IMG/VR virus record: IMGVR_UViG_648276659_000008
Length of the DNA stretch: 4,244 nt
From: a virus
Taxonomy: Duplodnaviria > Heunggongvirae > Uroviricota > Caudoviricetes
Reading direction: 5' to 3' (one strand)
Both the position numbers and the translations under genes were made by a program. This document shows, piece after piece, positions 1 through 1,741 of the stretch. Position 1 is the first letter of the stretch. Every line of letters begins with the position of its first letter. The notes below the pieces were generated by a model. That model worked only from the letters and a program-made list of their open reading frames with translations. It was not told where the DNA came from and searched no databases.

Positions 1-1741
1 CATCGAATGTTTCCTGGTATGTTGCGTCGCCCATTACCGCGCCACAATCAGGGCAGTTGCCGCCGCCGGTCTGACCGCAGGCGGTGCAGACTTTTTCCAC
101 TTCCTGTTGCGCCACTGGTTCAGGATGTTTCGTTTCTGGCTCGTTTTGTAACGCATTTGGGCTGTTTTGTTCCGCTTTCTGGCCGTTCTGTTCCGTTTCT
201 TGCTGGTTCTGATTCACTGAATCGCGGGTTTCAATCCCCTTCACCCATTTCGGATCATTCGGGTCGCTAATCCCTGCAACAAATTCACCACGTGATACAG
301 CAAGCAACTTATTGGCGTCAGGCTGGCTGATATTGGCTGCCTGCATAATTTTGTTTACTTCGTCAGCGGTAACTTTTACCGGCTCTGGTTGTGCGATCGT
401 GTCAGATGCACCAGTATTTTGTTGTGAACCTGAGTACGTGCCGTTTTTACGTGCGAAGTATTCCTCTTTTGTGATTTCCGTAGCTCCCAGGGCCAGTGCT
501 TTTTCCAGACCAGAAAGTTTGTTTGCGCGACCGTATTTTTCGCCGTCCTTATCGGTGAAAAGGAAGTAGAACGGTCCCTCACGCTCTACAGATGGTTCGT
601 CTTCCACTTCGCATTCGGTTTTTTCGTTGTCCGGCATTGCCGTTTCCACTGCATCAGTTTCTGGTACTGGTGACGGGAGAGTACCAGCTGTGCCCTGATT
701 TGTTCCTTCGTCATCTTCAAACACGCCCTTGGTAGTCAGGTATTCAGTGATGTATTTGTTCAGTGCTACGGGATCTTTGTGAATGTCGATCGGACGCTCA
801 CGGACAAGGCCAAAAATAGTCTGACGGTCGTAGCGAACGGCATCGGGTTGTTTGCGCATTGATGCGGAAATGCGCTTCCAGTCTTCGCGATCTTTGTCGA
901 TAACTTCATTTTTTGCCCGGCGATGGATGCTGCCGTCAATGTTTCCGGTATCAATATCGCCAGGCCAGAGAGCGTAGGCCAGTTCTTCATCCAGCGTTTT
1001 CCATGTCTGCTTGTATTCGCGACAAATGGCGGCAGTGACTGGGTTGATTTTTCCTGCTGAGTTTTCAGTGTGCTGTTGATTGACTCTGGCGCGGGCGAGA
1101 TCAACAACAGACGTGTATTTTCCAGTCTCTTTGCGCTCTGCGTCCTGCCGTTTTTTCCAGTTACGTAATTCAGCCTGAATTTCTGGCCATTTGGCACCCG
1201 GATTACATTTGTGTTTAACCCATCCGATAGCGAACAGTTTGCGTTCCGGATACATAGCGTTAATTTCAGGCGTTTTCATCAGTGCTTCAACGATATGCCC
1301 GTCAAAGGTAGCAACGTCTTCCTGCAGTAATTCCTGCGCGTCAATCGCCATATCAACGGTGATGTTTTCACATGTACCGAACTTAACCAGGACCGCGTTC
1401 TGTACTTCAAGGGACAGCTTGTCAAAATTGACGTTCATCGGATCGGATTCTGGTTCGACCGGAATAAAGGAAGCGGATTCCTCATCCCAGCGGTTTTCCT
1501 GCATATATTCAGCATCCCAGGAATCTAGGGCAGGGCGGGGTATACCGGGTTTATCCTCGCAGACAAGAAATTTATAAGCGCAGTCCTGAGCAGCCGGATA
1601 ATGTTCCAGGAATTGCCAGTGAAATTTTGCGCGGGCGCGACGTTCATCACCGGCTTCAATGGCAGTGGCTACAGCGACTGCACCTTCTTCCTTTATTGCC
1701 TGTTCGTCCGGAATGGCGGCGCAAATAAAGACTTTACTCAT
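1..1741 (-). CDS. ydfE: Large prophage early-operon protein, YdfE-like; partial, C-terminus runs off the window start (580 codons in window)
   Basis: Manual translation of the minus strand from ATG at 1741..1739 ([20 protein letters not shown]...) gives no in-frame stop down to position 2. SD-like GAGGT 8 nt upstream. The six-frame track omits it, presumably because it has no stop in window. Symbol is by synteny only (gene after ydfD); I do not recall the YdfE sequence. C-terminal region has CTAC-x7-CPDC (nt 44-88) and a Q/E/N-rich low-complexity linker. Confidence 0.7.
   Translation of the reverse strand, partial: [580 protein letters not shown]

Follow-up and report, generated by a model that had tools for sequence, protein, structure and literature searches.

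The open reading frame on the minus strand of the window (the whole stretch of viral DNA analyzed here, 4,244 nucleotides) covers the N-terminal 70% of a known and widespread gene of lambdoid (Qin-type) prophages. This prophage gene, annotated as an exonuclease, is very common and ordinary as a gene call. Because the exonuclease domain falls outside the window, the window holds only the non-catalytic part of the protein. We read this part of the ydfE-type exonuclease as a scaffold or tether and its four-cysteine motif as a structural or protein-contact element, and we assign the explanation as a whole, gene identity included, a probability of roughly 0.7.

The frame opens with an ATG at nucleotides 1741–1739, runs through 580 codons without a stop, and exits the window at nucleotide 2. 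An open frame of this length that extends past the window had been proposed in the first-pass annotation, and this was borne out by near-identical copies of 824 codons. These full-length relatives share up to 99.6% DNA identity with the window ORF, and the window protein is 99% identical to 824-amino acid Escherichia coli proteins named exonuclease or 3′–5′ exoribonuclease. The profile phrog_2082 ("exonuclease") matches with an E-value of 0, with protein residues 1–580 colinear to profile positions 1–579 of 823. The contig ends inside the gene, and the C terminus is known from relatives only; the complete gene is present, for example, in strain THO-006. Proteins with 99% identity to the window protein carry precomputed matches to the Pfam families YdfE_N (PF27430) and YdfE_C (PF27432); the window protein itself had no match in our Pfam copy, a version older than these two families. 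In the literature searched, we found no functional or experimental study of this protein.

In the full-length relatives, residues 642–813 match PF16473 (Rv2179c-like) with an E-value of 1.4e-67. The tail resembles PDB 8kel ("Exodeoxyribonuclease," E-value 1.5e-6), which we take to be T4 DexA, and displays the DEDDh motifs D-L-E-T, N-F-D, and H-N-A-L-D-D. The full-length protein is thus predicted to end in an Rv2179c/T4 DexA-like DEDDh 3′–5′ exonuclease, a tail that had been overlooked when the function was given as unknown. A Pfam search of the 580 window residues did not find this domain with its DxE, D, and H-x4-D motifs.

From the N to the C terminus, the window protein consists of a YdfE-type head, module B, an acidic linker, a mini-domain, a conserved ten-residue motif, a Q/E/N-rich linker, and the four-cysteine knuckle. 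Beyond the window, full-length copies continue with a further acidic linker and the DEDDh exonuclease. The features of the window are as follows.

1751–1754, minus strand: GAGG, Shine–Dalgarno-like, 9 nucleotides 5′ of the ATG (read from the sequence)
2–1741, minus strand: 5′ 70% of the ydfE-type exonuclease gene, first 580 codons (stop-free translation, phrog_2082, 99% identity to 824-amino acid proteins)
1442–1741, minus strand: α/β domain, residues 1–100, first part of the YdfE-type head (pLDDT 87–98, alignments A1 and A2, phrog_5943, phrog_31653)
1067–1429, minus strand: helical domain of the YdfE-type head, residues 105–225 (pLDDT ∼95 through residue 205, below 50 beyond it)
722–1021, minus strand: helical middle module B, residues 241–340 (pLDDT 87–96, homology)
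587–709, minus strand: acidic linker, residues 345–385 (27% D/E, 2% K/R)
437–586, minus strand: β-β-α-β-α mini-domain, residues 386–435 (pLDDT 92–95, alignment A7)
242–379, minus strand: module C, residues 455–500, with a conserved 17-residue motif (phrog_412, E-value 1.1e-15)
98–229, minus strand: Q/E/N-rich linker, residues 505–548 (composition, 21-nucleotide repeat, low-confidence model)
44–88, minus strand: CTAC-x7-CPDC, putative zinc knuckle pair, residues 552–566 (sequence, alignment A3)

AlphaFold2 models were built for residues 1–347 (model 1) and residues 376–580 (model 2). Residues 1–347 assume a confident fold of three domains (pLDDT 89.6). The best-conserved stretch of the head (GAV..A.A.EA...P..D...E..G.PRPA...FD) lies in its α/β domain, and the helical domain of the head is followed by a disordered stretch at residues 222–236. 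Module B is common to RecE (residues ∼278–350) and to many phage proteins annotated "exonuclease VIII." The acidic linker shows low pLDDT at both modeled edges, where model 1 ends and model 2 starts. Within residues 376–580, a confident fold is obtained for residues 386–435 only. The invariant positions of this mini-domain are GPFY, R-A-N-K, G, E-I, and K (alignment A7), and no significant sequence or structure match was found for it. A GIY-YIG nuclease, considered for the pattern GPFY...YGRANKL, was rejected for lack of profile or fold support: Foldseek against the GIY-YIG domain of UvrC (1yd6) gave E-values of 3–4 at a probability of ∼0.1, Pfam gave no match, and the A7 profile retrieved no GIY-YIG chain from the PDB. 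Module C is common to RecE and to all three tail types described below, with a pLDDT of only 60–75; the copy designated L001 shows a weak DUF4072 match in this module.

Q, E, and N account for 47% of residues 500–550 versus 13–27% elsewhere in the protein, in agreement with the low-complexity segment noted earlier ahead of the four-cysteine motif. The length of this linker varies among relatives, and RecE-type sequences are shorter here. The two 12-mers reported as imperfect repeats exist, the second at nucleotides 190–201 as given and the first at 169–180 instead of 170–181; their spacing is 21 nucleotides (seven codons, in frame), not 20 bp. Tandem Repeats Finder returned a period of 21 with 3.6 copies, 71% matches, and a score of 67 at nucleotides 126–200, and a repeat search returned a 23-nucleotide pair at a spacing of 63 that is 83% identical. 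The 21-nucleotide in-frame repeat is real but weak.

The role of the non-catalytic part is suggested by how its modules are combined in the family. Relatives carry one of two heads (YdfE-type or RecE PF06630-type) and one of three tails (DEDDh, PD-(D/E)XK, or ZF40-type), and by blastp every combination of head and tail was found among 247 clusters at 50% identity. A homologue search with the head of phage ZF40 gp07 gave three proteins only, and the diversity was sampled by a representative search instead. Because the same heads and middle modules are joined to three different tails, we infer that the front part serves as a scaffold or flexible tether, an argument from architecture and from analogy to RecE. 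Without catalysis of its own, it would bring the DNA-end-processing enzyme of the C terminus to a partner or substrate. In RecE, the region corresponding to the window part is dispensable for nuclease activity and enhances linear–linear recombination. A bolder version, possible but rather unlikely, regards the N-terminal region of YdfE and RecE as an exchangeable targeting scaffold of two heads, one middle module, and a motif-rich linker with a common partner at DNA ends. Such a scaffold would deliver the fused effector, be it a 3′–5′ exonuclease, a 5′–3′ exonuclease, or a Rad52-like annealase, to a common host or phage partner. The shared motifs (the ten-residue motif, the GRANK mini-domain, and the four-cysteine knuckle) would then be partner-binding elements, and it would be explained why full-length RecE, and not its nuclease domain alone, promotes linear–linear recombination. 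The two heads and three tails constitute natural chimeras for testing the role of the non-catalytic region.

The four-cysteine motif lies exactly where it had been reported, its 15 residues containing Cys-552, Cys-555, Cys-563, and Cys-566, i.e. four of the 11 cysteines found in 580 residues. It is continuous with a conserved G-A-V-M-G-D-A-T-Y stretch. In alignment A3, no representative with the segment departs from the four cysteines or from the downstream CG-x-V-x-G-[DN]-x-T-Y, not even those in which the flanking linker has diverged. Searched by regular expression, the motif is carried by 7 of 61 long representatives; with short fragments added, it is found in 10 of the 36 rows of alignment A3. 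It had been presented as a feature of ydfE, but is part of a segment that Rac RecE also has (near-verbatim at residues ∼518–545) and is absent from most family representatives. Together with its flanks, the motif forms one block that is shared with the uncharacterized N-terminal region of RecE.

The third cysteine is replaced naturally. A C563Y allele occurs in otherwise intact 824-amino acid genes in 23 complete genomes, and among the 120 closest database proteins, 64 have the Cys-to-Tyr variant, 63 of them truncated. The truncations, and a first 70-mer probe without an exact copy in complete genomes, had suggested an artifact of contig ends. This was rejected on account of a linked synonymous change, the presence of the allele in the complete genome of THO-006, and its exact occurrence in the 23 complete genomes.

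Could the motif be a DNA- or RNA-binding zinc ribbon that directs the protein to nucleic acid? Its CxxC-x7-CxxC pattern is invariant wherever the segment exists, and in this protein as in RecE it is located just upstream of the nuclease domain. The two CxxC pairs agree with the zinc-ribbon signature recognized in the first-pass annotation, whereas AlphaFold2 yields no confident knuckle or hairpin: the motif region reaches a pLDDT of 50–63 with isolated bridge residues only, and its surroundings overall 46–66. The seven-residue, glycine-rich spacer is probably too short for a classical two-hairpin zinc ribbon. Acidic residues dominate the neighborhood, with seven D/E and one K/R in the 34 residues around the motif and 28 D/E versus eight K/R in the 140-residue linker. 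Since the motif is missing from most of the family, its surroundings are acidic and poorly modeled, and the C563Y allele persists in nature, the nucleic-acid binding suggested earlier is unsupported, and we consider this explanation improbable. Most likely, the motif is a small element within the tether that is stapled by metal and serves structure or protein contacts; it appears to be lineage-specific and not essential.

On its upstream side, the window contains DicF (Rfam, 77 bits), DicB, and DUF1482/YdfD, and the gene closes the operon to which DicF, dicB, and ydfD also belong. The downstream side is seen in relatives only: xis (or DUF4224) and int come next in related prophages and complete genomes. 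Some hosts carry frameshifts in the neighboring integrase and ydfB genes. Of 5426 complete E. coli genomes, 3488 contain at least 80% of the ORF, at a median of two places per genome and up to ten. Only eight close loci turned up in a scan of the contig collection, on contigs of Escherichia, Shigella, and MAGs. Many draft-assembly copies, this contig included, break off in the block shared with RecE, which accounts for the flood of "partial" database proteins of 580–660 residues.

The company of the host-directed DicF, DicB, and YdfD raises the alternative that the N-terminal region acts autonomously, for instance by inhibiting or hijacking a host factor (anti-defense or host take-over), and that shuffling alone fused it to nucleases. 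The head has a confidently predicted fold without an informative structural relative, which would suit such a role, but its low-Z fold matches are not significant. Head-only fragments form separate PHROGs (phrog_5943), many of these entries being assembly fragments or IS truncations. In the long representatives with typed tails, the heads precede DNA-end-processing tails, which argues for a linked function and leaves an autonomous role a doubtful explanation. It is very improbable that cryptic prophages carry the gene as decaying cargo whose function is not maintained, the motif being a relic. The IS2-truncated K-12 ydfE, the C563Y allele, and the frameshifted neighbors fit decay. Against it, thousands of genomes have an uninterrupted 1.7-kb frame at 87–99% nucleotide identity, the gene is carried by isolated phages (Evi, Tritos, HannyBb, and PPompW phages), and module conservation extends, at 23–30% identity, to phages of Pectobacterium and Stenotrophomonas and to one Serratia protein.

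The gene can be compared with four known systems. One is ydfE of E. coli K-12 (b1577, Qin prophage), which shares the upstream neighbors DicF, dicB, and ydfD. The kinship proposed earlier holds: residues 1–256 are 88% identical (BLASTP E-value 9e-171). K-12 ydfE is also, as noted earlier, an IS-disrupted pseudogene: similarity ends where IS2E starts in MG1655 (ydfE at 1650078–1650998, IS2E from 1650843). K-12 ydfE is an IS2-truncated remnant of this gene, in which only the first 256 authentic codons precede IS2E, whereas the window copy is open for at least 580 codons and close relatives for 824. The intact frame had been set against K-12 as a contrast; however, the intact form is what E. coli usually carries, and K-12 departs from the rule.

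DnaQ-like 3′–5′ nucleases have been found in lambdoid recombination modules, as have "RecE-2" proteins without a nuclease domain (PMC12315714). The ydfE-type gene resembles the DnaQ-like/Rv2179c-like/T4 DexA-like DEDDh exonucleases of that study in the PF16473 domain of its full-length relatives and, among the relatives examined, in its position before xis/int. It differs in that ∼640 non-catalytic residues precede the domain and in that an annealase, SSB, or Gam gene is not alongside; in the complete genomes examined, no annealase was annotated adjacent to the gene.

The YdfE-type head and module B also align with gp07 of Pectobacterium phage ZF40 and with a 710-amino acid protein of Stenotrophomonas phage BUCT708 (phrog_2489) at 23–31% identity. 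Their genes are found at the same place, with the repressor region on one side and int on the other, and the two proteins probably correspond to "RecE-2" of PMC12315714. In contrast to the ydfE-type protein, they lack the four-cysteine motif, and their tail has no nuclease family match and weak similarity to Rad52_Rad22. Eight of 19 members with a ZF40-type tail match Rad52_Rad22 below threshold (best E-value 0.017), and a profile of this tail found nothing among PDB sequences. A Rad52-like annealase identity of this tail is a weak lead, not a finding.

RecE (exonuclease VIII) of the Rac prophage shares much of the non-catalytic part. Residues 262–625 align with RecE residues 278–591 (BLASTP E-value 9e-61), including a 31-residue stretch around the four-cysteine motif, and the last 150 residues of this shared stretch are ∼80% identical. 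The likeness runs from the helical middle module through the ten-residue motif and the Q/E-rich linker to the four-cysteine motif with the acidic linker that comes after it. In its own prophage, each of the two genes precedes xis/int. The RecE equivalog NF007259 scores 220 bits against the window protein and 273.7 bits against a full-length relative, below its cutoff of 1269, and only the middle region aligns. PF06630 and PF12684 are both found in RecE and in neither the window protein nor its full-length relative, and the ydfE-type gene has no adjoining recT-like partner. Whereas RecE joins a PF06630 head to a PD-(D/E)XK (PF12684) 5′–3′ nuclease, the ydfE-type protein carries a YdfE-type head and, in its full-length relatives, a predicted DEDDh 3′–5′ exonuclease.

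The window codes for the front part, which is not catalytic, of a DEDDh exonuclease with several domains; the middle and linker of this protein are common to RecE (exonuclease VIII of the Rac prophage). Read on the reverse complement, nt 1–1741 form a frame of 580 codons that has no stop and is still open at the window edge, as the first-pass annotation had described. The frame begins with an ATG at nt 1741–1739, and a GAGG lies 9 nt upstream. The annotation had also proposed similarity to ydfE and stated that the K-12 copy is truncated by an IS element. The orthology and the truncation are both correct: residues 1–256 share 88% identity with the K-12 ydfE pseudogene, and the similarity stops at the start of IS2E in MG1655. 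PHROG 2082 ("exonuclease," 823 positions) matches the ORF colinearly over positions 1–579 (E 0), and 824-residue E. coli proteins, named exonuclease or 3'-5' exoribonuclease, are 99% identical to its product. These proteins carry PF27430 (YdfE_N) and PF27432 (YdfE_C), and the window protein had no hits in Pfam because the copy searched lacked both families.

The ORF belongs to a stretch of a lambdoid, Qin-like E. coli prophage, and nearly all genes called in the window are on the minus strand.

Features of the window
nt 3822–3977, minus strand: DUF1391/ydfA-like gene
minus strand: ydfB-like gene
nt 3444–3662, minus strand: ydfC-like gene
nt 3020–3421, minus strand: 133-aa gene of unknown function (phrog_1363)
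nt 2782–3060, plus strand: 92-aa ORF of unknown function (phrog_18692)
nt 2394–2445, minus strand: DicF small RNA, complete (Rfam RF00039, model positions 1–52 of 52; 77 bits, gathering score 48)
nt 2022–2210, minus strand: dicB (PF05358, E 4e-38)
nt 1834–2025, minus strand: DUF1482/ydfD-like gene
nt 1–1741, minus strand: ydfE-type ORF, 580 codons

The whole window is at most 96.4% identical to complete E. coli genomes (megablast, 5426 genomes), and the ORF by itself at most 99.6%. DicF is located between the 133-aa gene and dicB, the same as in the K-12 operon with DicF and dicB. The ydfC–DicF gap measures ∼1 kb in the window, where it is filled by the 92-aa and 133-aa ORFs, whereas it is only ∼340 nt in K-12. 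The 3' ends of these two ORFs share 41 nt, and the pair may be an extra accessory insert (moron) in the operon. The window ends in ∼40 G residues (nt 4201–4244), downstream of a terminator-like hairpin and T-run (nt 4175–4205). This run is missing at the homologous locus L001 and most likely arose in sequencing or assembly, as an artefact of the contig end, e.g. poly-G from two-colour Illumina chemistry.

The gene is intact in two complete genomes, FDAARGOS_1249 (823 codons) and THO-006 (824 codons). Genes for an excisionase (or a DUF4224 protein) and for an integrase come after it, and no annealase gene was found near it in either. Full-length copies possess a C-terminal DEDDh 3'-5' exonuclease at residues 642–813 (PF16473, Rv2179c-like, E 1.4e-67; RNase_T matches more weakly), so that the window is left with 70% of the protein, the non-catalytic part. 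Their tail shows the motifs DLET, NFD, and HNALDD and resembles PDB 8kel "Exodeoxyribonuclease" (E 1.5e-6), presumably T4 DexA.

When a full-length relative was compared with K-12 RecE by BLASTP, residues 262–625 aligned to RecE 278–591 (E 9e-61). The final ∼150 residues of the alignment, which include a 31-letter RecE stretch, are ∼80% identical. The NCBIfam RecE equivalog matched the middle region only, with a score far under its cutoff. Judged from these alignments, the four-cysteine motif is a module common to the ydfE-type protein and RecE; the presumed "zinc ribbon" is this RecE-shared block, whose putative function is probably not essential.

Searched exhaustively with HMMER (E ≤ 0.001), 1.84 billion representatives yielded only 247 clusters; the family is thus small. 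We placed its modules on the long representatives (n = 61) by blastp. Either of two heads (YdfE-type or RecE PF06630 type) is combined with a common part, the helical module B (residues 241–340), optionally with the 386–435 mini-domain, a 17-letter conserved motif, and the four-cysteine motif, and with one of three tails: DEDDh, RecE-type PD-(D/E)XK, or that of Pectobacterium phage ZF40 gp07. All head–tail combinations were seen. A head with an autonomous host-directed function is less likely than a scaffold or tether; nature combines these heads and middles with three tails, of which two are nucleases and one may be an annealase. The ZF40-type tail matched no nuclease family, and sub-threshold Rad52_Rad22 matches in 8 of 19 such tails (best E 0.017) are suggestive only. 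This tail is the C-terminal domain of the phrog_2489 "exonucleases" (L012:5300–6160 in ZF40, and L013:5180–6007; database proteins P0121 and P0123); it features an invariant KKSLTD...K.LS.LGF..D and may be an annealase mis-annotated as an exonuclease.

The motif CTAC-x7-CPDC occupies residues 552–566 (nt 44–88), exactly as noted at first pass, and the adjoining Q/E/N-rich segment is borne out by a Q+E+N content of 47% in residues 500–550. The imperfect repeat is confirmed with two corrections: of its two 12-mers, the second lies at 190–201, but the first lies at 169–180, one base off, and the spacing is 21 nt rather than 20. Tandem Repeats Finder reports a period of 21 (3.6 copies, 71% matches, nt 126–200), so the repeat, imperfect and weak, is in frame (7 codons).

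By regular expression, 7 of the 61 long representatives carry the motif, as do 10 of 36 rows of the family alignment when short fragments are included. Every carrier keeps C-x2-C-G-x2-G-G-x2-C-P-D-C-G-x-V-x-G-[DN]-x-T-Y, and the flanking linker is divergent and of variable length. A nucleic-acid-binding ribbon, as suggested at first pass, is less likely, and nothing supports it: the surroundings are acidic (7 D/E versus 1 K/R in the 34 residues around the motif; 28 versus 8 in the 140-residue linker), the seven-residue spacer is mostly glycine, and there is a natural allele with tyrosine in place of the third cysteine (TGC to TAC, plus a linked synonymous change). Among the 120 closest database proteins, 64 have this allele, and in strain THO-006, whose genome is complete, it sits inside the intact 824-codon gene; its haplotype was found as an exact 70-mer in 23 complete genomes, and the Cys haplotype of the window, as an overlapping but shifted 70-mer, in 357. 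The site is therefore not indispensable, although it is conserved across lineages. A small structural or protein-contact element, stapled by a putative metal site within a flexible acidic tether, fits better than a ribbon that binds nucleic acid. The closest relatives of the window (L014, L015, and L017; 99.6% nucleotide identity) have Tyr at codon 563 (nt 53–55) and a linked GTA-to-GTG change at nt 35, and the last ∼55 nt of the window show the Cys/GTA haplotype of the more distant L001. Either the window copy is a mosaic, or the contig end derives from an assembly-graph junction with another prophage copy.

An AlphaFold2 model based on a 36-sequence alignment covered residues 1–347 (mean pLDDT 89.6, three parts), and a second model covered 376–580.

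Predicted domains
residues 1–100: alpha/beta domain
residues 105–225: helical domain, ending in a disordered stretch (222–236)
residues 245–340: second helical domain
residues 386–435 (nt 437–586): beta-beta-alpha-beta-alpha mini-domain, pLDDT 92–95

The mini-domain is the only confident part of residues 376–580; the remainder, including the four-cysteine motif, has a pLDDT of 46–66. The invariants of the mini-domain are GPFY, R-A-N-K, G, E-I, and K, and it occurs in some family members only, mostly with a YdfE-type head. It has no detectable relative in the PDB, and Foldseek gave no significant match in PDB or BFVD. A GIY-YIG identity found no support in fold and profile searches.

This is a known and very common gene. 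Of 5426 complete E. coli genomes, 3488 contain at least 80% of the 1741-nt ORF, at a median of two and a maximum of ten places per genome, and isolated phages (PPompW phages, Evi, Tritos, and HannyBb, among others) carry the gene. Normally the gene is long and intact, and the truncation in K-12 is exceptional; a decaying gene is less likely. Only 19 of the 120 closest database proteins are full length; the 101 truncated "partial" entries mostly end at residues 580–660, which suggests that draft assemblies often break just past the four-cysteine motif, probably because that stretch is common to co-resident prophages. Draft E. coli assemblies frequently break in the ydfE-type gene. The window itself stops just past the motif, opposite the poly-G end. 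One database protein (P0068), annotated as integrase and with an integrase Pfam match, seems to be mis-assembled or fused.

The non-catalytic region would act as a scaffold or tether that brings the effector to a partner or to DNA ends, with short conserved motifs of the disordered linker as possible contact points. In RecE, the counterpart of this region is not needed for nuclease activity but promotes linear–linear recombination. Lambdoid recombination modules include DnaQ-like 3'-5' nucleases and also "RecE-2" proteins, which lack a nuclease domain (PMC12315714). The natural head/tail chimeras and shared linker motifs offer a route to the unexplained N-terminal region of RecE.
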